Assembly: GCF_006345805.1 (NCBI RefSeq)
Contig: NW_021834310.1
Span: 1 to 64,000, forward strand
Reading direction: 5' to 3'
DNA: 64,000 bases
Source: Octopus sinensis
Taxonomy: Eukaryota
The notes under the pieces are model-generated. The model was not told the origin of the DNA. It searched no databases and worked only from the letters and a program-made list of their open reading frames with translations. The first letter of the stretch is position 1, and every line of letters begins with the position of its first letter. Position numbers and translations under genes: made by a program. Positions 8,145 through 52,394 of this stretch are shown here, one piece after another.

Positions 8145-8534
8145 TTTTAACTTTCGCTTTGTAGTTAATTTGTAAGGAATATCAATGTATTTTATTAAAA
8201 AAATTATTTATAATTTATCCACCAAATCCATAAATTGTCCTACCTTGACGTTTCAAGGCATTAACAAAGTCCATTGCGATAACAGTTTTTCTTTTGGCAT
8301 GTTCAGTGTAAGAAATACAATCACGAACAGTTTGCTCGATAAAAATTTTAAAAACAGAACGTGTCTCCTCGTAAATTTTTCCAGAAATTCTTCGAACACC
8401 TCCTCTTCGACATAGTCTTCTTATTGCTGGCTTAGTAATTCCTTGTATATTGTCAATTAATATCTTTCGAAATCGTTTTGCACCACTCTTTCCTCCATTC
8501 CTTGTATATTTAATTTTCTATTTATAATTTTCAT

Positions 8535-28642: not shown

Positions 28643-29807
28643 TTAAAGATTTAAGTCAGGTTTAATCAATTTAGGAGAAAATAACCTCAACAAATCAGTC
28701 CCCCGCACTTCCGTCGTCTCTTGAACAACCAAAGTCACATGAAAATCAGAATACAACACATTAATCTGACAACAAACTAAAAAAACAACTTTATCCAGAT
28801 ATTCTCTCTGCAATTCAAGTCTACCACTGCATCGAGGACATTCCCTTCCAACCTTATTCCCCGTTGATGGAAGGAGTTGGTTGACCACAATATTCCGCAC
28901 ATCAATTTCCGAATCTATAATCGGCCCCTCAAAAAGTAAAAAAACCCATCAGAAATGTCACAAGTCGTTCAGTCTCAAAAACTGAAAGAAACTCCGCGAT
29001 ACAAACGCAAACAAACGTTGTTTTTAGAGCGTCGTGGAACTCTGCGTTTAAGCGACTTATCAGATCAGAATAGACGGAAAGTTTGTCAAAAAATGTTGCC
29101 AATGAACTGCTATCCACCCCCAAGATCCTCGAAAACTAAAATCACGACTATTTAAAATTACTTGCTGGAGGATTGGAGAGAGAACTCCTTTAAGTCTGAG
29201 CAATTTGCTGACATTATTCTCAAGGACTCCGGGGAGACTCAGAAATCTGATTGTGTGCCCTGTCGGAGCAGTATCGAACACCACGACAGAATAAGTCAGA
29301 TCGCTTACCAGCCTACTCTGTCACAAATATATATTACTTCATGGACTCGATATAGCCCATGATCTCGTCAATTCCAGGCAGGACAGCCATGATTTCCCTG
29401 AGAGTATCACTCCCCAGCACATTATCTTCTTCTACAAAACACAAATATTGATAAACCCCCAAAATATCCTTCTGGGACTTCAAAATTATTCATATTTGGA
29501 TCAATTTCCTAATAATTGAAACTAATATAAAAACCATTGCAAAAAGATTTTCAAATCCATTCACGGCAATAGGATGGCGGGAAAATTTCTGGTCAAATGC
29601 ATCGCTTAGGTTATGTGCTGGATCAGTAGAGACAAGTAGAACACTAGTCCTAACTTTGGAAAGTTCGATGGCCAGAGAACAGCTGTTTTATTGAATTACA
29701 AGTCTTTTCTGCAACCTCGCTGTAGTTTTCCCGACTCCCCCTTTTCCTCCTACAAAAATCCATCGAAGTGAAGTTTGTTTGATTATATTCTCAAGACCTG
29801 GTTCCAT
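28643..29807 (-). CDS. GET3: Tail-anchored protein insertion ATPase GET3/ASNA1 (TRC40), 8 exons, 324 aa, intact
   Basis: Spliced by hand: [35 protein letters not shown]...[12 protein letters not shown]...PGIDE...[10 protein letters not shown]...[14 protein letters not shown]...NIVVNQL...CPRC...EVRG. Introns (plus coordinates) 29683-29715, 29509-29534, 29432-29456, 29313-29337, 29136-29161, 28915-28945, 28766-28789, all GT-AG. 1165-190=975 nt, in frame. Confidence 0.95.
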
Positions 29808-32361: not shown

Positions 32362-35152
32362 ATGGAGACCCATGCTCGTTCTCAACACTTGATGTCCCAC
32401 GGAGGCGTCGAAAAAATTGAATTTCTCTGTCGCCTGGAATTACTTTTCGTGAAAAGTGATGTCGTAAGAAAAGTCATATCAGAGTGCGTTGTCTGCAAAA
32501 TAATCAGATTGAGAATTCCGCTTTTAAATATTGGTATCGCAATGCCAGGACTGCAAATATTGCCAGTTTTTTGATAATAAAAAAATTAATAAAAAATCGA
32601 TAATGCGCGACATTTTCAATCAAAATAGACTGAAACTTTTGCATTCAAGTCTAATTCAGAACAACTACAGAAATGTCTCATTTTCCAGGAAACTTTGAAC
32701 CAAAATAAAAAGTAAATTTAGAGAGACACTTTAACACAAAACACTCAAATTTCTCAAAAAATATCCAATTGGTGATTCGCGAAAGAAAGCTGTAGAAGAA
32801 CTTGCAAATAATAATCAGATTGAGAATTCCGCTTTTAAATATTGGTAGCATAATGCCAGGACTGCAAATATTGCCAGTTTTTTGAAAGGGGAAAACCATT
32901 TACCGATGACGAATTTATAAAGGCAAGATTCATTAAAACCTCCGAAGAACTTTTTCACGATTTTTCAAATAAGGCATAAATCGTGAATAAGATAATGAAT
33001 ATACCTTTATCTGCGAAAAAGTAGCGGTTTCAAATAGATCTTATTGATCTGAAGAGGTTTGAAAACGTTAACGGAGAAGACAAATGGATTCTATCCGTTA
33101 TTGACGTCTATAGTCGGTTTTATGATTATAATTATCATAGCTTTGCTTTTGCTAGGCCACTAATTAATAATCAGGAGTCAAGGTTTCAAAAAATCTTGAT
33201 CCCTATTTTATCTGAATGGTCCCTGTCAGATTCTACAATCCGACAATGGGATAGAATTCAAAAATATTGACATTCTGGTTCTTTGCGAGTTCAAAATTCA
33301 ACAGATCACGGCAGTTTTGATCTTAAAATCAAACAAATTCAGGGAAGGCCCAACAATCCACGGACACAGGGGATTGTAGAGAAATTCAACCACCAAAATT
33401 TAAAAAGAAAGTTATCAAAAATGCTTGATAACAAAAATGTATATTAAGTTTCTTGTTGGAACGTCAAAGAATTCACAAAACATTTTTAATTGATTGTATT
33501 GCAATAAATACAGCTCCCAATTCCGCGATTATATTTCATATTATTATTATTAACTCCAAGATCACCGAGAAAGATAGGTCAGAACTAACTAATTAGGTGA
33601 TCTCTGCCTCCAACAACAGCCGTACTCTCCTTACATGATCTTCTGATGACCCGACCGTAACCCGGATACTCCTTCTCTTCCTTCTGCAGAAGAACTCAAT
33701 TGGAGTGCATTTCTTTATAACCGACCGAAATTCCTTTGCATGGGCCACCTTTTCCTTGAATGGGTTTCCCAATTCCTTGCAGAAACGTAGGAAACCCTGT
33801 CCATTCTTCTGCGTCGCCTCCTCGGAAGCAAGGCTGCCAAATGAGGTGTCAGTGTGGAGCATAATCTTCCTTCTGAGTGAGTTCAAACGTGTGCTCTAGA
33901 GGCCAAAAGGATGCCAATAGGGGTATGAGCAAAGATGATTTAAATGCAATCATGAAGAAAATACAGGACTGCAACCAAAGTGAGAAGCAGAAGACGCAAA
34001 TGCTGGACTCACTTAAAAACCAAGTCGGAAGCGTAAATTTACAAGGCCTAACCGACTATATGATAATTCAGTTACTCCAAAGTATTCAAACTTATATCTA
34101 CAAATCAAATCTAACGAGAAATCAAACAAAAACACACAAAATTAAAGTTAATGCATATTTTTAGACAAACAATTAGTGTTTTGATAGCCTCGATAGCCTT
34201 TGAATGATCCAACCCCTTCTCGGCCACACTATAAATACCCCCAACCAAATAATACGGAGCATTGGTCTTCCCATTAACCACAAACAGAGGATTTGGTTTT
34301 TCCAGCACTTGGGAATTCACAGAGAGCCCGTCGAGGTACTGTTTCAGAATACTCCGCAAGTACTGATTCTTATTCGACAGTCTTCTCTGTCTATCTTCAA
34401 TGGATAAAACGTCTAAAGGAACCGAGTTGAATCTCTTTCAAATTTGTTCTTGCTCTTGGTCATCGAGGATATTCTGAATATTTTTTGGAGTTTTTTGTAC
34501 TTTGAAAGGGTCCAACTGTTCGGAATAGGTTGTCGGGGTTCGACTGAGTTCTTCGTCTGTGGATTCAACTAGTGCCTTCAAATGGGTCTTTTGGAAGCTA
34601 TAAAGACTTCTATCAAGAAATCGTTTAAAAATATAACATGGCGAAGCATGAAACGACCAAGAGGACACCTTTCGAAATTTTTATGCGAGGAAATAATTTA
34701 ATCCCGGAGGAAATAAGATCGGCGTTATTATCATTCGATGGAAATGAAGCGGTTGAATCAAGTCAATCGGAGATAATTGGATCCGATTATTTCGATCTGA
34801 ATGACGAATCATCCAAACATGTACACAAAAGTCGTATAAAAAATATGACTCTTATAAAAAAATTTTATATAATAAAAATTCATGAATTTTTAATATTTGT
34901 TTTTAAATGGTAGACCTAAAAAATTGTAGAATTATACTAAAATACGTTATTGATTCGGAAAAATTGGTGATGCCGGTTTTTGCCGACTCTTGGAAAAATT
35001 CATTCAATCAAAAAATTGATAAAAAATTAAATAAATCGACTTAATTCCATTTTCAAGTTATTTTTAATTAATTATCAGGTTATTTTCGTTTGATTTTAAT
35101 AAAATTTTCAAGGGGCTATTATCCAACCCAAGGCATTATCCAGCCTGTGACA
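32362..35152 (+). mobile_element. Ginger2/KRBA2-like integrase transposon, fragmented and interrupted
   Basis: HHCC region H..SHGG...CVVC (32362-32500); core DLIDL...WILSVIDVYSRF, LQSDNG.EFKN, GRPNNPRTQGIVEKFN (33040-33400); YNMAKHETTKRTPFEIF (34630-34685); terminus ...AGCCTGTGACA at 35152. A matching TGTCACAGGCT end occurs at 63835. Confidence 0.7.
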
Positions 35153-35449
35153 ATTTCAAACACAATTAACGAATAAACGTTTATAAATAATTATAGATAA
35201 AATATCGCAGTACTGTGTTATTTTATCATTGACGAAATATTTTTTTAGTCCAATATAGTGAACAAAAATAAAAACTGAAAAAGGATTTTCTCATGAATTT
35301 ACTATGAAAAAAATAATAAAAATAACTACTATTGATTTAAAACATTAAATAAAGTATTGTTTATTTTTTAGTTTGTCTAAAAAATATTATATTTATACGG
35401 TTTTCCATTCATTGATAATTCAGAACCCAAAAAATGAACAAATTTATTT

Positions 35450-36400
35450 AATATCTATTATGTCCTCCATTATCTCTAATTACATCTAGTATTCAGCCTG
35501 GCATGCTATTAATAAAACTTTTTGCGTATTTTATTTTGAGTTAATTCCAAATGGATGATATTTTTGCAAATAAATGTTCCTTTTTCAAAAATTCTGTTCC
35601 TTTGATTTTTTCTTTAATAAAGGCCCAAACATTCTCTATAGGGTTTAAATCTGGGCTTTGTATTGGCCATAGTAGAATTCGATATTATTTACTTCAAAAA
35701 AGCTCTTTGCTTTTGCCGAAGTATGTTTCGGTTCATTGTCTTGTTGTTAACTAGGATCTTTATGTTTGATTTAGTTCAGAAATGAGATCATATTATTCGT
35801 TAATATGTTAACATACAAAGCTCCACCCATCTTCTCTTTTATCAAAACCAAATTAATGAATCCAATATTGATTATGGCATGATAGTTCATGATAGTTCCT
35901 CTACCGAATTTTACTATTTTTGTAAGATTGTTTGTTAAATATTTTTCCTTGCAATTTCTCCATACTAAAGTTCTCACATCACTACTGTACATATTAAATT
36001 TACTTTGATCACTTAAAATAACTCGCTCACGAAATATTTTGAGAGCATATTGCATGTTTGGCATAGCTTTAATCATTGAAATTTAGGGTTATGCATTCAG
36101 ACCAATTTTTTCGTGGTATTTCTTATTGTTTGAGCTGTTACTGATTTCCCTTTTTTTCTGTAAATGTTTTAGAAAATTTAAAACAGTTGAAATTGACATC
36201 CACTTTTCAAGCCTCTTTAATTTAAAATATTTTTGAGGATTGAGCAACGAATGGTCAACCAGACCCGACTTTTTTATCTGTCATGCACGTATTTAAATAG
36301 CTTTTGATAATTTGCAATATCGTTCCAAGCATACTATTTCGTGATATCTTGTTTTTCCAGATTTATACATGCCAATTATTCTGCCTTTTTTTCAGATGTT
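35450..36400 (-). mobile_element. Tc1 transposase pseudogene
   Basis: VILSDQSKFN...VWR...VKFGRGTIM; QQDNEPKHT; WPIQSPDLNPIENVW; TIRs not resolved. Confidence 0.85.
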
Positions 36401-36629
36401 CAATGATTGGCTATGTAGAGAGGTTACAAATGAACGAATTTTAAAAAATAAAACCTTTTTTGATATATTTAAGTAATTTGATTTGTTCAGTTTTTTTGGT
36501 TTTGAATTTTCGAAATTATAAAAAAGGGCATAAATATATATTTATTAAAAAAACTAAAAAAATGTAAAGCGTATGCAGATCAAAAGATACTCAAATCAGA
36601 TAGTACGTATAAAGTCACTGTAAACACGA

Positions 36630-37922
36630 ATGAGAAGTTTCGCAGATTTTATGAAAGACTCTATTAGCAAGAATGATAACGAACAAATAGAGAAAACTCA
36701 TGGCTCAAGGGACGGAGACGACCCGAAGCCTCGCACCATCCCTTTGGGGGAGTTCTTAAAACCAAAGGATGAAGATTGGGAAAACCCTAATTATCAGAAG
36801 GTCTATATGAGCGGTGGACCGATTCTGTTGAATATGAATGTCAAGATAAAGGTTGGTACCTTTGCAAGAGAATACAGACCATTCACAATTGAGTTGAAAT
36901 ACAAGTACACAAAGAACGATAGAGCAATCATAAATACCCTTGGTAGAATGACGGAGTTTAATCAAGACTTAGTTACTTCTAGTCTTGCTATATTCTTAAT
37001 GAATTACACCTTCGATGCACCTGCTCACTTTGGAGATGTTGTAATCACTGAAGAGTACCAGGATATAACTGGTTATTCGCTGGTTGGAAATGGGTTTAAA
37101 GTAAGAACGGCGGAAATGGCAATGAATTTCGGTGAAACGGACACCGAAAGAGGGAGAGCGACCATTGACGAATGGAGGATTGCTTTGATGAGGGCTCTTT
37201 CTCCAGTAAGGTTTGCTCACGCTGCTGAGAGAAACCCCGACGCGATCGAACCTCTAACTGAGAGGTACCACTCGGTGATGAGAAATCTTGACCCAACATA
37301 TCAACCAGAAAGAACATTCGTTCTCAAGATGTACCAAAAATACCTGCTTGACAGGGGACTTTATAAACTGTGTTGCCTCTTGGACAAGATGTTTTACACC
37401 TGTCCAGAGGACCCGATGTCCGCATTGCGTTTCTGCACTATCCCGTTTTACAACACGGGGAACGCTCTTCTGCCAAGGGTAGTCTCATTGTGTGCGGCCT
37501 TTCCAAGAGAACTTGAAAGGGTCGTCATGGTTGAGTCACTATTCGCCCCTGCATATGTAAATGAAGTCAGTCGATTTATAGGCCATTGCTTCGAGGTCCT
37601 TAAAACCGACCATTTGTGTATATATCATAAAGGGCTGGGATTAGTTAAGGCTTCGGCCTTTAGCTCTATGTCTTTGCCTGGCTACTTTATGTATACGAGT
37701 GCGACTGCAGCCATGATCAAACATCCCAAGTTTATGTTTTCACGATCGATTACTCCGAATCCTCAAGCGATGGTTAACGGCTTGCTCTTTTCCATTATGC
37801 ATGAAACATATAGAACAACAGGGGAGACTCCGGCGCTCACTGCACAGGAGTACGCAATGGAAAAGGCGATAAAGCAGATCTTCCCAAAAATGTTCCGTCT
37901 GGAAACCCAAGAAAAAGATTAA
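36630..37922 (+). CDS. N: Rhabdovirus-like nucleoprotein (endogenous viral element), 430 aa, intact and intronless
   Basis: LDKMF(251-255)..LRFCTI(266-271)..GLGLVKASAFSS(335-346)..P350..R372..GLLF correspond to vesiculovirus N VDMFF..FRYGTI..FGLSSKSPYSS..P295..R317..GLLY with a near-constant +53 to +55 offset (VSV sequence from memory). Size matches rhabdoviral N. Confidence 0.85.
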   Translation: MRSFADFMKDSISKNDNEQIEKTHGSRDGDDPKPRTIPLGEFLKPKDEDWENPNYQKVYMSGGPILLNMNVKIKVGTFAREYRPFTIELKYKYTKNDRAIINTLGRMTEFNQDLVTSSLAIFLMNYTFDAPAHFGDVVITEEYQDITGYSLVGNGFKVRTAEMAMNFGETDTERGRATIDEWRIALMRALSPVRFAHAAERNPDAIEPLTERYHSVMRNLDPTYQPERTFVLKMYQKYLLDRGLYKLCCLLDKMFYTCPEDPMSALRFCTIPFYNTGNALLPRVVSLCAAFPRELERVVMVESLFAPAYVNEVSRFIGHCFEVLKTDHLCIYHKGLGLVKASAFSSMSLPGYFMYTSATAAMIKHPKFMFSRSITPNPQAMVNGLLFSIMHETYRTTGETPALTAQEYAMEKAIKQIFPKMFRLETQEKD

Positions 37923-37990
37923 CTGACGCACAATATGAGATCTATTGTCAAATAATCCAAACTGACGAGTACTAAAAGGTCGAGCAAGAC

Positions 37991-38374
37991 ATGGCTAGAG
38001 TGATAAATCCTTACATCTCCTTGGGTGTAAGGTTAAGACGAAGAATGCTGTATCACCCTTATTTGACTCCCCAAGAATACGACCACATCAAATCCCGGGT
38101 TGGGAACCAGCGGAAAAGAGAAGGCTCGTTGCTTGAAGTCTTTACAAATTATGAACCGATCTCTCATCCTGACATAACTTTCATAGATGGCGTTCCTCGA
38201 TATTCTCTAGCGGATGAAGAAGAGAGGAGACGATCCAGAGAAGATGATATAGAAAGATTAAATGAGACTCGGGATACTGCGAAAGAAAGAGAAAATTTAA
38301 GGAGTCTCCATTTTGGCTCTGATGATGAGCCTAGCGATGATGACAATGACAGCAGCAGTAATGGAAATAATTGA
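37991..38374 (+). CDS. Orphan 127-aa ORF directly downstream of N; basic N-half and acidic/Ser-rich tail; probably the second viral gene
   Basis: Co-oriented, 68 nt after the N stop, uninterrupted, intronless; RLRRR...KSRVGNQRKR then DEEERRRSREDD...SDDEPSDDDNDSSS; no recognised family. Confidence 0.55.
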   Translation: MARVINPYISLGVRLRRRMLYHPYLTPQEYDHIKSRVGNQRKREGSLLEVFTNYEPISHPDITFIDGVPRYSLADEEERRRSREDDIERLNETRDTAKERENLRSLHFGSDDEPSDDDNDSSSNGNN

Positions 38375-38718
38375 TTTATCTTGTTATTTTCTTCTCCTTC
38401 TTCCCCTTTGTACATTTTTTGAATGAATGAAGAATTTTATTGTAAGAAAGAAGAACGAGACAGAAACTTAGTGCGGAAAATAATTTTGACGAGACGATTG
38501 CTTTGGGCATTCGAGCTCTTCCATGGTTCGTCCGCTTTGTCTGTCTATGAGCAGGGACACCTGCTATTCTCCACGATCGATGAATAGGTCAGCCACTTTA
38601 GAACGTTTCCGAAAAGTTCGGATAGAATCCTCGATGGCCTGCCGTAGCTCTGGAAACTTGCTCTCCGCCCAGCTTGGGACAGGGTCCCATGGATTTAGCA
38701 TATAGGCTAGTTTTAGAG

Positions 38719-40878
38719 CAGTGGTTCTCAAACTGGGGTACGCGTACCCCTAGGGGTACGCGAAATTCTGTAGGGGGTACGCGAAAATTTTTTGAAAATC
38801 TATTTAATTTTCGTTTCAACATAAAAAAGTTATTAATTCTAATTATAATAAAAATCATAATTAAATTAAATAATTAATAATAAAATAAATCTCCACGCTA
38901 CTAGTTTTTCTTATGAGTTTACCTGTTAACAAGATTCGAAAATACAACGATAGTTATCTCAACTATGGATTGTATTTTGTGATTAAAAACGGTGTGCCAC
39001 ATCCGCAGTGTATTATTTGCCAAAAGATTCTTTGCCCTGAATCCATGAAACCTTCATTACTTTCTCGGCATCAAGTTTCTAATCATTTCGAAACTATCGG
39101 AAAACCAAATGACTTTTTTAAGAACAAAAAAGATAATATTCGGAAAATAGACGATTCTTTCAATTTTGACATTAATTTTTTACTATCAAAACTCTCTTAC
39201 ATGATTTCATATCGGATCGCAAAGCCAAAAAACCACATACAATTGCCGAGAATCTTATTATACCGTGCATTAAGGACATGTTTGAATGTTTCCCTGGCAA
39301 TAAATTGGAGCATATTGTTCGAAAAATTCCATGTTCAAATGATACCGTCAATAGAAGAATACGAGATCTATCCGAAAACATAAAAGAACAAGTTATTTTC
39401 TGGTTAATTATTATTAGGTCATTACTGAAATAAAAAGTGCTGCCTTTAAAAAATTTTCAATTCAATTGGATGAATCAACAGATGTAGCAAATTGCTCTCA
39501 GTTACTCGTTTATGTGCGATATATTTATATGGAAAATATTAAGGAAGAATTTTTGTTCAACTATTCCTTACCTTTAAACACAAAAGTTTCTGATATTTTC
39601 GATGCAGTTAATTGTTTTTTTGAAACAGAAGGTACATTTTTGATTTTTTACTTATGATAGGCCTATTGTGGCAAAATCTTAGTGCATGCACCACAGATGG
39701 AGCACCAGCTATGCTTGGATGTAACTCTGGTTTCCGAGGTAGAGTACAATCTGTCAATCCAAATGTAAAACATCTTCACTGTATGTTGCATCGTTATGTT
39801 CTTGCTGTGAAGACAATGCCTCTTGAACTTAAAAATGTTCTTGACGATGTTATTAAATTGTCAATCATATCAAAAAAAGTCTTTAAATTCGCGAATTTTT
39901 TATTCAATTTGTGAAGAATTTGGTTCAGATGAGAAGGTTTTACTATATCACACAGAAGTTCGATGGTTATCCAAAGGAAATGTTCTTTCCAGAGTGCACA
40001 GTTTGAAGAATGAAATTTATGAATATTTTCTTCGCGAAAATAAAAATTATATTTATCAAAGTTATCAAATATGTATTGGGGTGTAATGCTATCTTATTTA
40101 ACGGACATTTTTTCGCGAATTAATGCTTTGAATTTATCGGTACAAACTAAGGGAGTTACCATTGTTGACTTTTTAGAAAAAACAAGGTTTTTTACGAAAT
40201 AATGCAATATTGTAGGTCTTTTCGTATGAAGCTCCAACTGTGGATAGATAATACAACAAATTCTAATTTTACTATGTTTGATAAGTTGAATGAAAACATT
40301 TTCCATCTAAAATTAAATGAAATAGAAAATTTAAAACATCAAATAACTTCCCATTTACTTGGATTGAAGAATGAAATTGAAAAATATATACCTGAAATTA
40401 ATGAAGTAGATCTTAAGTTTTTTGTCAATCCTTTTTCCGTAAAAGTTAATGTTTTGCCTTCAAATATTCAAGAAGAAGTTATTGAATTAATAAATTCTTA
40501 CGAGTCAAAAATCTTATTTGAATCTGCACCATTAATTGAATTTTGGTGTAAAATGACATCAAAATATCACAATATTGGATTTTATATAATCGATTTTTTG
40601 CTTTTGTTTCCGACTACATATCTCTGCGAACAAGGATTTTCATCGTTGTTTAATTTAAAATCAGTTCATCGTGCGAGGCTGAATGTTGTTCATGATATTC
40701 GGGTGTGTCTTTCGTCAAAGGATCCAGAAATCGATAGATTAGTGATTGATAAACAACACCATCCATCTCATTAATTAAATATTTTTTTTCCTTAATTTTT
40801 TAAAAATCGATAAGGGGTACGCGAAAAATTATTTAGATGGCAAGGGGTACGCAAGGAAAAAAAGTTTGAGAACCACTG
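38719..40878 (+). mobile_element. hAT transposon (Buster/Charlie, ZBED5/SCAND3-like), near full length, frameshifted
   Basis: TIRs CAGTGGTTCTCAAACT at both ends with GGGGTACGC subterminal repeats; BED-like PQCIIC; LDESTD, TTDGAPAM, HCMLH, EVRWLS, FPTTYLCEQGFS. Flanks TTTTAGAG vs GTGTAGAT are not identical. Confidence 0.93.
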
Positions 40879-40889
40879 GTGTAGATACA

Positions 40890-41372
40890 CCAATTGCCTA
40901 AACAGCATTTTTTTACATCAGTGCTGTTAGGGTCAATGGTTACCCATGTATACTGTGCTGCTCGTGAATACAGACCCTCATCAGTCAATTTGTAAATGTA
41001 TGACACGGATGGAGACGCGGTAGCAAGCATCTTTCTACGAGAAATGTCTTCACTATCTCCAAGTATGGAGCCGAGTTTGTTGGCGTTCCTCCATCTTTTG
41101 CCAATTCTATCGTCCATTTGTTTTATCTCCGTCAATTCAGTTTTGGAAGTGTTAATTATCAGGAACCATTTGTTAAGCACCCGTGGGGAATTGTTTAGTA
41201 GATGGATTAGATCATCTATGTTGTCCGAGGCAAAGTCCACATCGTTGGCATATACAATTTCGGTGATAGAATCATTATAGAAAGTTCTCAAATCTCTCAA
41301 GGCGGCTTCCAGATAGATTACAAATAGCAGAGGGGAGAGAGAGTCTACGTGCTGACCAATTTCAGTTGGCAA
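40890..41372 (-). mobile_element. RTE RT fragment
   Basis: DSLSPLLFVIYLEAALRD...YANDVDF...LGSILGDSEDI; same family as 48520-51506. Confidence 0.85.
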
Positions 41373-41374
41373 GC

Positions 41375-42063
41375 ATCAATTGTGCCTGTCAACCCCACTC
41401 GGCCGATTGGCTTGACGCTTTTCCGATTTCCTCTGCTGGAATGTTACTGAACGACGAATCTGTCCGCATCGGAATCTGTTTACGGCTGGGCATAGAGATT
41501 TGCCAGCCGCACCATTGCAGATGTGGACAACTCATTGACAGGAGAGGTTTACACCCTCTCTCTTGTCGCCTCAGTGCCGGCAGGATCCCCAGGCACGCCT
41601 CATTGAATGACGTTGTGAAGCGCGCGTTTAACGTCGCTGGATTTCCCTCGATGTTAGAACCGATAGGACTAGACCGTGGAGATGGAAAACGCCCTGACGG
41701 GTCGACCTTATTCCCGTTCAGGAATGGAATGGCACTCGTGTGGGATGTTACCTGCGTAGACTCGTTTTCTTCATCATCGTTGGTTGACTCCGCTTCTCGT
41801 CCTGAATCTGCATCTGCCCTTGCCGAATCTAGGAAAACTGCAAAATATGCCTCTTTGACCGATATCTGCTCCTTCATTCCCCTGGCTTTCGAGACCAGTA
41901 GGATAATTGGACCCAAAGCCCTCCAACTCCTCTCAGAGATTGGTTTAATCATCTCGAGGAGGAGTCACGACAGTCGCGAAACGAGCTGGCTTTTTCAGCG
42001 GATATCGTTCGCGATATTACGCGGAAATTGCCTGTCCATCCGCTCGGCGACTCATCTAAATTA
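41375..42063 (+). mobile_element. CRE-clade 3' fragment (endonuclease domain)
   Basis: HSADWL..P...RLG...[54 protein letters not shown]. Confidence 0.9.
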
Positions 42064-44075: not shown

Positions 44076-44684
44076 ATGAGTGTAAAACGAACAATACTTT
44101 GGAAATTCATTGTCAATCTTTTAAAAACCAAAAACAAAGCAATTGAATAGAAAAATAAATCTATGGGAATATTTGTAATCACCGATGGAGATTTGTTGGC
44201 ATATTGGTGGGGACAATGCAAACAAAACCCTTCCATGAATGAACAAAAACTTTCGAGGGCTCTCAGAACATACTACAAATATCCAAAAATTCTTAAAAAA
44301 GTACGTCATTCAAGAAATACCTACATGTTCCTCAATAGAAGAACAGAACAAATCCCAACACATATGTCACCGGAGCAGACTAAAGAAATAAATATCCCCA
44401 ATATGTCGTATCCCCAATACACTGTTCAGACAGAAGAAATCCAGCCACAAATCTGTCAGTTTTATATGCCATTTGAGGATCCGTATTATTCATATTATGT
44501 GCCAAATATTTATTATCCGAATTATACATCATATGACTACAATTATTCTGAAGATTCAAATTGTCTCAATCGTTATTCAAAGGAATTGGATGATATTCTT
44601 TTTCCCCTCGAAAACGAATTTGGTTCTACAATTAATGACCAGGCTCTAACAGAACCAGATTTCTACACATCATACTATAAATAA
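44076..44684 (+). pseudogene. ETS-domain transcription factor copy A; TGG>TAG nonsense at codon 25, otherwise open to 202 codons
   Basis: LWKFIVNLL..IE*..GIFVI..AYWWG..KQNPSMNEQKLSRALRTYY..ILKKV is the ETS domain; TAG at 44148-44150; Tyr/Pro-rich tail. Confidence 0.88.
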
Positions 44685-51788: not shown

Positions 51789-52394
51789 ATGGGTGTAAAA
51801 CGAACAATACTTTGGAAATTCATTGTCAATCTTTTAAAAACCAAAAACAAAGCAATTGAATGGAAAAATAAATCTATGGGAATATTTGTAATCACCGATG
51901 GAGATTTGTTGGCATATTGGTGGGGACAATGCAAACAAAACCCTTCCATGAATGAACAAAAACTTTCGAGGGCTCTCAGAACATACTACAAATATCCAAA
52001 AATTCTTAAAAAAGTACGTCATTCAAGAAATACCTACATGTTCCTCAATAGAAGAACAGAACAAATCCCAACACATATGTCACCGGAGCAGACTGAAGAA
52101 ATAAATATCCCCAATATGTCGTATCCCCATACACTGTTCAGACAGAAGAAATCCAGCCACAAATCTGTCAGTTTTATATGCCATTTGAGGATCCGTATTA
52201 TTCTATATGTGCCAAATATTTATTATCGAATTATACATCATATGACTACAATTATTCTGAAGATTCAAATTGTCTCAATCGTTATTCAAAGGATTGGATG
52301 ATATTCTTTTTCCCCTCGAAAACGAATTTGGTTCTACAATTAATGACCAGGCTCTAACAGAACCAGATTTCTACACACATCATACTATAAATAA
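51789..52394 (+). pseudogene. ETS-domain factor copy B; complete ETS domain, frameshifted C-terminal half
   Basis: TGG intact at codon 25; small indels after ~52120 shift the frame relative to copy A (may be sequence error). Confidence 0.8.

Follow-up and report, generated by a model that had tools for sequence, protein, structure and literature searches.

A rhabdovirus nucleoprotein gene copy in DNA of a probable dicyemid parasite assembled together with Octopus sinensis

Endogenous viral elements (EVEs) of rhabdovirus origin are known mainly from arthropods, according to the accessible parts of the literature. The rhabdovirus nucleoprotein (N) insertions of mosquitoes, ticks and sandflies, for which likewise excerpts were available, are mRNA-like fragments that lie among retrotransposons and have decayed and duplicated. 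The locus described here resembles them in these respects, and N-derived pieces are also the most numerous class in the octopus-parasite assembly. It differs from them in its probable host, a spiralian parasite, and in about ten captures of one viral lineage. A further difference lies in the neighbours, which are non-LTR elements and DNA transposons here, in a comparison made without an LTR search. Mosquito EVEs are associated with LTR elements.

Among free viruses, the sphaeridiorhabdoviruses, the psilorhabdoviruses, Himastelon rhabdovirus and Beihai dimarhabdovirus 1 are filed under Betaplatrhavirus in the accessible text of PMC12451637. Such viruses were argued, in the sections available of PMC9241645, to infect parasitic flatworms and to be ancestral to vertebrate rhabdoviruses. 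As for the possible hosts, the available excerpts give a 67.5-Mb genome with 49% repeats and multiple LINE ORF2 copies for Dicyema japonicum from the renal sacs of Octopus sinensis (PMC6736024), a median dicyemid intron of 27 bp (PMC6543705) and myxobolid introns of 22-27 nt, introns this short being ascribed to myxobolids and Dicyema only (PMC13644364). Dicyemida were included in a virome survey of 31 phyla, as stated in the part available of PMC11097642. Against this background, what seems to be new is the host phylum, together with the depth of the lineage, the length of its N and how many captures there were.

The window, i.e. the whole stretch of 64,000 nucleotides that was analysed, is filed under Octopus sinensis. 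It probably carries a non-retroviral EVE, a DNA copy of a rhabdoviral N mRNA from a virus with an N of ~580 aa, in the genome of a dicyemid that was co-assembled with its octopus host. The features of the locus and the host markers are listed in Table 1, in which the labels Tc1 and hAT were taken from the first-pass annotation and sequence inspection.

Table 1. Positions of the viral insertions, their neighbours and the host markers in the window
Feature	Position	Strand	Remarks
Divergent histone H4 (host marker)	8218..8517	-	~77% identical to typical H4
GET3/ArsA (host marker)	28643..29807	-	ultra-short introns; reads through
Decayed Tc1-like transposon	35152..36568	-	multicopy family; ends 14 nt before the start of viral homology
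Whole N-gene insertion	36582..38393	+	N coding region, preceded by a short 5' leader and followed by the 3' end, about one N mRNA in extent; extent based on 80% DNA identity to a copy on contig C381
430-codon ORF	36630..37922	+	residues 1 to ~415 are N (N-terminal region and core); last ~15 residues are out-of-frame read-through
Frame break relative to other N copies	37865..37885	+	same sequence in short-read contig
Acidic tail of N (C-terminal ~150 residues), displaced	37862..38374	+	includes apparent 127-codon ORF at 37991-38374
3' end of multicopy LINE with short tandem-repeat tail	38419..38718	-	faces the 3' end of the N insertion
hAT-like DNA transposon with terminal inverted repeats	38719..40878	+	flanking 8-mers differ
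Rhabdovirus glycoprotein (G) piece, second viral fragment	40879..41017	-	in frame and in sense with the RT fragment
RT fragment of a non-LTR retrotransposon, continuous with the G piece	41018..41375	-	RVT_1, E 5.5e-9

The 430-codon ORF almost certainly encodes a divergent rhabdovirus N. It runs from ATG to stop without internal stops at 36630-37922 (+), as had been stated in the first-pass annotation, and ~2e-8 frames of this length are expected by chance in the window. Its GC content is 0.44, compared with 0.26 in the upstream Tc1 and 0.37 in the window. The Pfam search that had been proposed as a check gave Rhabdo_ncap (PF00945) as the sole match of the window protein with E 0.039, but at 13.3 bits it stayed under the gathering score of 26 bits, as did the best of nine sister frames with 19 bits. 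Searching 1.84 billion proteins with phmmer yielded three matches, two of which span residues 200-380 with ~25% identity (E 8.7e-5 and 3.7e-4); both relatives belong firmly to Rhabdo_ncap (E 7e-42 and 2e-68, above the Pfam cut-off). The third (P0002) was rejected, being a match of 47 residues to a repeat protein. A profile made from nine genomic copies matched VSV N in all four of its PDB matches, weakly (E 0.04); this test is not circular since the profile contains genomic copies alone.

Fold comparison, also among the proposed checks, pointed the same way. Foldseek ranked rhabdovirus N first in PDB and in BFVD, starting from an AlphaFold model of low confidence (mean pLDDT 42.7) whose input alignment included two known rhabdovirus N proteins. 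In a VIA fold search of 48,161 chains, the top 14 were all mononegaviral N, with SVCV N (Z 10.8, rmsd 6.3, 268 aligned) followed by rabies N (Z 10.4), while the next unrelated chain had Z 5.2. The protein is thus predicted to adopt the two-lobed helical fold of mononegaviral N. The fold matches and one of the alignments with VSV are partly circular because known N proteins were part of the underlying alignment. A model from the genome only was too poor (pLDDT 36.6) and gave no Foldseek match at E<=0.001; its top rows were bornavirus N with E 0.55.

The VSV-like motifs claimed for the ORF were found where they had been placed, with LDKMF at 251, LRFCTI at 266, GLGLVKASAFSS at 335, LP at 349 and R372, and they align with the core of VSV N. 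The motif positions of the RNA groove align as well, the lysine of the VSV motif being offset by one residue. D252, R267, S345 and R372 fall on conserved VSV positions, and the conserved motif residues presumably have RNA-binding roles. Residues ~180-390 of the window core align with the N of VSV, SVCV and rabies virus in sequence and predicted fold. In contrast to these members of the Rhabdoviridae, the window N shows 11-18% identity in the best structural alignments, its source protein had ~580 aa compared with 404-450 aa in the solved N chains, and the acidic tail of the source protein is without database match.

Across the sequence and fold searches no competing cellular or transposon protein was encountered. 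The single window protein gave six phmmer matches in PDB, none of them significant, and the ESM Atlas had no usable match for the N protein or the acidic tail. A word-based search of 5.8 billion proteins with the alignment as query confirmed none of 6409 candidates. By exact look-up in the protein collection, the window N, a 582-aa ORF of a sister copy, the P-like ORF and the downstream ORF were all absent. For the 582-aa protein, 0 of 2 stretches on viral contigs and 0 of 79 on metagenome contigs were confirmed. Taken together, the Pfam, phmmer, profile and fold matches support the annotation's view of a very divergent rhabdovirus N EVE in an animal with tiny introns.

The sister copies show that the window gene is split. 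On contig C6088, a single ORF of 582 codons covers the window N and the downstream 127-codon ORF; relative to it, the window follows residues 1-414 in one frame and residues 412-563 in another, the latter with 66% identity. Thus the claim that the ORF is free of frameshifts fails near codon 415. Nine of the 11 loci covering both anchors have them in one open frame (five contigs, three independent insertions), the exceptions being the window and one heavily broken copy, and the tail is likewise in frame with the core in distant N lineages (~40% and ~20% identity). As core and tail share one frame elsewhere, the source protein had a length of ~580 aa, and in the window copy the frame is broken near codon 415. 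In the displaced tail pS is 0.62-0.88 and pN 0.045-0.19, so that pN is far below pS as in the core. The 127-codon ORF had been considered as a separate P gene; this was rejected since it is the displaced N tail and in frame in sister copies.

A long-read error is an unlikely cause of the break, as the sequence is reproduced in one 1,910-nt contig (36539-38448) of the short-read run X1 at a depth of 28.7 with 0 substitutions and 0 gaps; X1 is guessed to be DNA and may itself be the source of the assembly. In run X2 the stretch had no cover and run X3 contained the LINE only; neither was counted as evidence. Among the listed runs that contain the stretch a single sample is represented, and RNA runs are absent. 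The window copy carries private changes at 15 of 239 otherwise fixed positions (invariant in five or more other clusters) compared with 51 of 1700 in the pooled sisters (p=0.02). Its decay can very roughly be put at 2-3%, and at that level 415 codons would stay free of stops with a chance of ~0.23. The first-pass annotation had concluded from intactness that the copy was either recent or co-opted. With the frame change and the excess of private amino-acid changes, the best reading is a moderately young pseudogene without protein function, and the copies in general most likely have no present function as proteins.

In the assembly 59 N matches were found among 64 candidates scored. The close lineage of the window comprises 22 loci in 12 clusters, for which ~10-12 insertions is a fair count as two of the clusters span the first 139 codons only; besides it, the assembly contains no fewer than three N lineages that are more distant. 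Most copies contain stops and frameshifts, being fragments or broken, and their flanks and breakpoints differ. Between the window and its 21 sister loci, pS amounts to 0.62-0.90 and pN to 0.05-0.15, a pattern that indicates purifying selection and is expected if viral strains diverged before they were inserted. Within clusters, the pooled pN/pS is 0.62 (26.6/1126 synonymous and 56.4/3830 non-synonymous sites), below 1 by Fisher's test (p=0.035, uncorrected for transition bias), so that some constraint is conceivable and the ratio is not fully neutral. The saturated synonymous sites between the clusters indicate that a circulating virus was captured several times independently and that the copies then decayed. 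Since copies were duplicated and decayed, the insertions would have been inherited. That the locus is an EVE is very probable: a viral gene lies in host DNA with host sequence on both sides, the supporting run being possibly the source of the assembly.

The host of these insertions is a second animal, as the assembly contains octopus and a co-assembled parasite on small contigs. The window GET3 has seven introns of ~24-34 nt by eye (five of 22-45 nt in the path with the fewest introns), in agreement with the tiny-intron genome described by the first-pass annotation. A second GET3 on contig C7, with exons 5-10 kb apart, is 51-69% identical to it; one tiny-intron GET3 was found in the assembly. 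Two types of 18S also occur, with copies of ~2.5-2.65 kb mostly on chromosome-scale contigs and a copy of 1,667 nt on contig C1618. Two GET3 genes and two 18S types imply two organisms. The short 18S matches the dicyemid primers F3 and R2 (PMC6778094 supplement) with 2 and 0 mismatches, respectively, while in the one long copy examined neither primer matches. C1618 also carries the Tc1 family of the window, which ties this dicyemid-type 18S to it. Introns mostly below ~30 nt, as expected of dicyemids, were observed on GET3 only. None of the 59 N matches lies on a chromosome-scale contig, and the 18 N-bearing contigs measured have 7-892 kb. From introns, 18S primers and context, the window's organism is very probably a dicyemid kidney parasite.

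Some further observations concern the parasite's DNA. The window H4 shares 98% identity with two proteins that carry the label Octopus sinensis and are encoded on contigs of 42-50 kb. A 97% piece of the parasite 18S lies at L027:3108-3465 between viral pieces and a LINE tail, on a contig bearing N and L, and is consistent with reverse transcriptase copying abundant RNAs. Copies of the window's Tc1 family at L083-L086 and L107 have as their flanks the sequence that comes after the short 18S within the rDNA unit, which suggests insertion in rDNA.

Other viral genes were recovered from the same assembly. Matches to Mononeg_RNA_pol (the polymerase L) number at least 33, of which 29 lie off chromosome-scale contigs; this count is a floor, the search having been stricter than that for N. 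G gave three matches and the P-like frame that follows N on C6088 gave 18. The G piece of the window has 97% DNA identity to a G copy on contig C9340, which matches PF00974 and PF24833. On the latter contig (L045, L097, L100), a broken stretch shows three frames without a name, of 129, 427 and 260 aa, followed by G and a stop-ridden truncated L; the gene order of rhabdoviruses is N-P-M-G-L. The labels M and P on viral frames, including the P-like frame of C6088, are by position only: the two P-like frames showed no alignment to each other, nor did the frames of 129 and 427 aa align to the window tail or the C6088 P-like frame. N and L share contigs C12603, C8999 and C10696, but a collinear locus from N to L was not found, and at no locus was the window N lineage physically linked to an L piece.

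An open L frame has rabies and VSV L as its closest PDB entries, and in the protein collection sphaeridiorhabdoviruses, psilorhabdoviruses and Himastelon rhabdovirus were best with 44-47% identity. The L pieces of the small contigs formed a single clade (100/97-99) in three trees. Its sister was Beihai dimarhabdovirus 1 together with an unnamed Logan protein (97-99/95), inside the betaplatrhavirus group (100/97-99). LG+G and a mixture model gave the same placement in trees that comprised rhabdoviruses only, without outgroup or any named alpha- or gammaplatrhavirus, and with long branches. The first tree left out 70 of 120 listed relatives and later trees kept 32 and 18 references, short L fragments being dropped from the last. 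A clade of known members excluding the genomic pieces was disfavoured by an AU test with p=0.024, for a group chosen after seeing the tree. The L of the source virus would accordingly be placed within the Rhabdoviridae, to judge from L pieces that lie on contigs of the same class. These pieces nest within the flatworm-associated betaplatrhavirus group, but differ from its members by a long branch with at least three sub-lineages of ~45-59% mutual identity and by their origin from a non-flatworm host, being known here from genomic fossils alone. The identity of 47% of an L piece in the conserved region is below the genus level of 50% quoted in the available text of PMC9241645.

Three other viral insertions are worth recording. 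On the chromosome-scale (host) contig C23, a separate, frameshifted rhabdovirus L insertion was found at 23140149-23141653; its best matches are vesiculo- and dimarhabdovirus-like, and it sits on a long branch apart from the small-contig clade. An insertion resembling Nodavirus methyltransferase (PF19222, E 3e-12) lies at L027:1955-2782 (-) on C10696, with pieces in L032 and L100, which means that a positive-strand RNA virus was captured too. Patchwork loci were seen at L037 (C12418) and L062 (C12699), where fragments of N, the P-like gene and G adjoin one another and lack internal parts, some of them from different viral lineages.

The route by which the copies arose would be as follows. A rhabdovirus lineage, whose N comprised an N-terminal region of ~130 aa, the rhabdovirus core and an acidic tail of ~150 aa, may have infected the parasite persistently, including the cells that give rise to offspring. 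Reverse transcriptases of parasite LINEs would have copied viral mRNAs, often with template switching, and the copies would have integrated. At least about ten captures of the window's N lineage probably took place in this way, from strains that were already saturated at synonymous sites, and the captured copies would then have duplicated and decayed. The fusion of RT and G, the patchwork loci and the captured 18S fragment fit template switching by a LINE reverse transcriptase, as we infer. For 21 of 40 N-fragment ends a presumed non-LTR match was located no more than 400 nt away, compared with 502 of 2877 control points (17%), an enrichment that is inflated as the retroelement library came from the same loci and contained self-hits and some unverified frames. 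In the window, the insertion sits between the Tc1 end and the 3' tail of a LINE that has at least 40 matches in the assembly (all 40 scored, from 76 candidates), the RT frame following in other copies. At the hAT element further downstream, the flanks (38711-38718 and 40879-40886) are no target-site duplication, and the adjacent elements are both cut short where they meet it, which suggests a deletion or rearrangement at that site.

Several other explanations have to be considered. It is extremely unlikely that the stretch is an assembly chimera or contaminating viral cDNA. The only run that contains it may be the one from which the assembly was made, and the X1 contig extends by 30 nt into the repeat on either side, where the rule for bridging asks for 31 nt; against this stand the even depth and identical sequence of the 1,910 nt in what is guessed to be a DNA run, and dozens of copies, degraded and duplicated, whose flanks differ. 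A host gene family domesticated long ago, or orthologues from several pooled parasite species, under purifying selection, would explain why pN is far below pS between clusters, yet this is very improbable: flanks and breakpoints differ, most copies are fragmentary or broken, a single tiny-intron GET3 was found, related lineages are seen in the same way among the L pieces, a P-like gene comes after N on C6088, and duplicates decay. Somewhat less remote, and still improbable, is that the DNA belongs to another organism with tiny introns such as a myxozoan, or that the virus infected the octopus and the parasite merely picked it up. Myxobolids share introns of this size (PMC13644364, accessible part), rhabdoviruses in cephalopods are named in the title of Rey-Campos et al. 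2023, and one L insertion does lie on chromosome-scale C23. However, dicyemid primers match the short 18S, which is tied to the window's Tc1, the C23 piece falls apart from the small-contig clade, the N matches avoid chromosome-scale contigs altogether, and repeated heritable capture would imply replication in parasite cells.

The remaining explanations accept a captured N and concern its use. Under co-option, the window copy would serve as an N without tail (residues 1-415) and interfere with the nucleocapsid assembly of live virus; from Aedes albopictus a translated antiviral nrEVE is reported (PMC13643977, excerpt). The break does fall past the core, which is stop-free, and start codon and leader are kept. 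The reading frame as a whole is not intact, the fixed residues are changed more often than in sister copies, a stop-free core is unsurprising at that decay and a decayed Tc1 lies immediately upstream; co-option of the window copy is therefore not supported and appears about as improbable as a different host. An archive for small RNAs, in which insertions in repeat-rich regions similar to piRNA clusters give antisense piRNAs against the cognate virus, is a tentative but more plausible idea; it is compatible with the dicyemid EVE reading and differs from it on function. It draws on the concentration of viral pieces among transposons and on shared contigs, on the precedent in Aedes mosquitoes (sources available in part) and on a Piwi-clade gene, with Piwi proteins as its six best PDB matches, on the small contig C9497, where an N fragment lies as well. 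The orientation of N fragments relative to neighbouring retroelements speaks against it, being mixed with 12 of 21 on the same strand. On the sequence evidence, a role in piRNA production is possible. Piwi-domain genes were seen on the small contigs C9497, C12468, C8702 and C7758.

A literature search on dicyemid viruses and cephalopod rhabdoviruses, with most subscription journals outside its scope, found no paper describing a dicyemid virus, which agrees with the earlier remark that almost no viruses are described for this host group; the text and one supplement of PMC10101049 mention neither Dicyema nor Octopus. Endogenous copies are among the strongest evidence for the true host of a virus because they require entry into a heritable cell line, and the present ones would place rhabdoviruses in Dicyemida. 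The rhabdoviruses of Rey-Campos et al. 2023 may include these viruses under the host's name. More speculatively, and with a good deal of reserve, dicyemids could have their own long-standing, probably vertically transmitted radiation of long-N rhabdoviruses, related to flatworm viruses and archived by LINEs in a Piwi-dependent antiviral memory; rhabdoviruses from cephalopod transcriptomes would then in part be dicyemid viruses with a misassigned host. For the flatworm-rhabdovirus clade, the copies bear on the choice between an old lineage of spiralian parasites and movement between co-infecting parasites. The interest of the locus lies in this record of host and virus rather than in the intactness of the window copy. 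The viral pieces can serve as direct probes for live viruses in dicyemid and cephalopod RNA data, and the locus is a warning that parasite genes stand under the host's name in public databases, for instance the matches of the window H4.

Elsewhere in the window, a sigma-70 promoter scan gave counts at chance level, the model being irrelevant to animal DNA. Coding-looking frames with one stop lie at 34114-34880 (-), without match in Pfam or in the other loci compared. Near-identical Ets-domain frames at 44163-44684 and 51789-52301 are each followed by a similar retroelement fragment and represent a local duplication.
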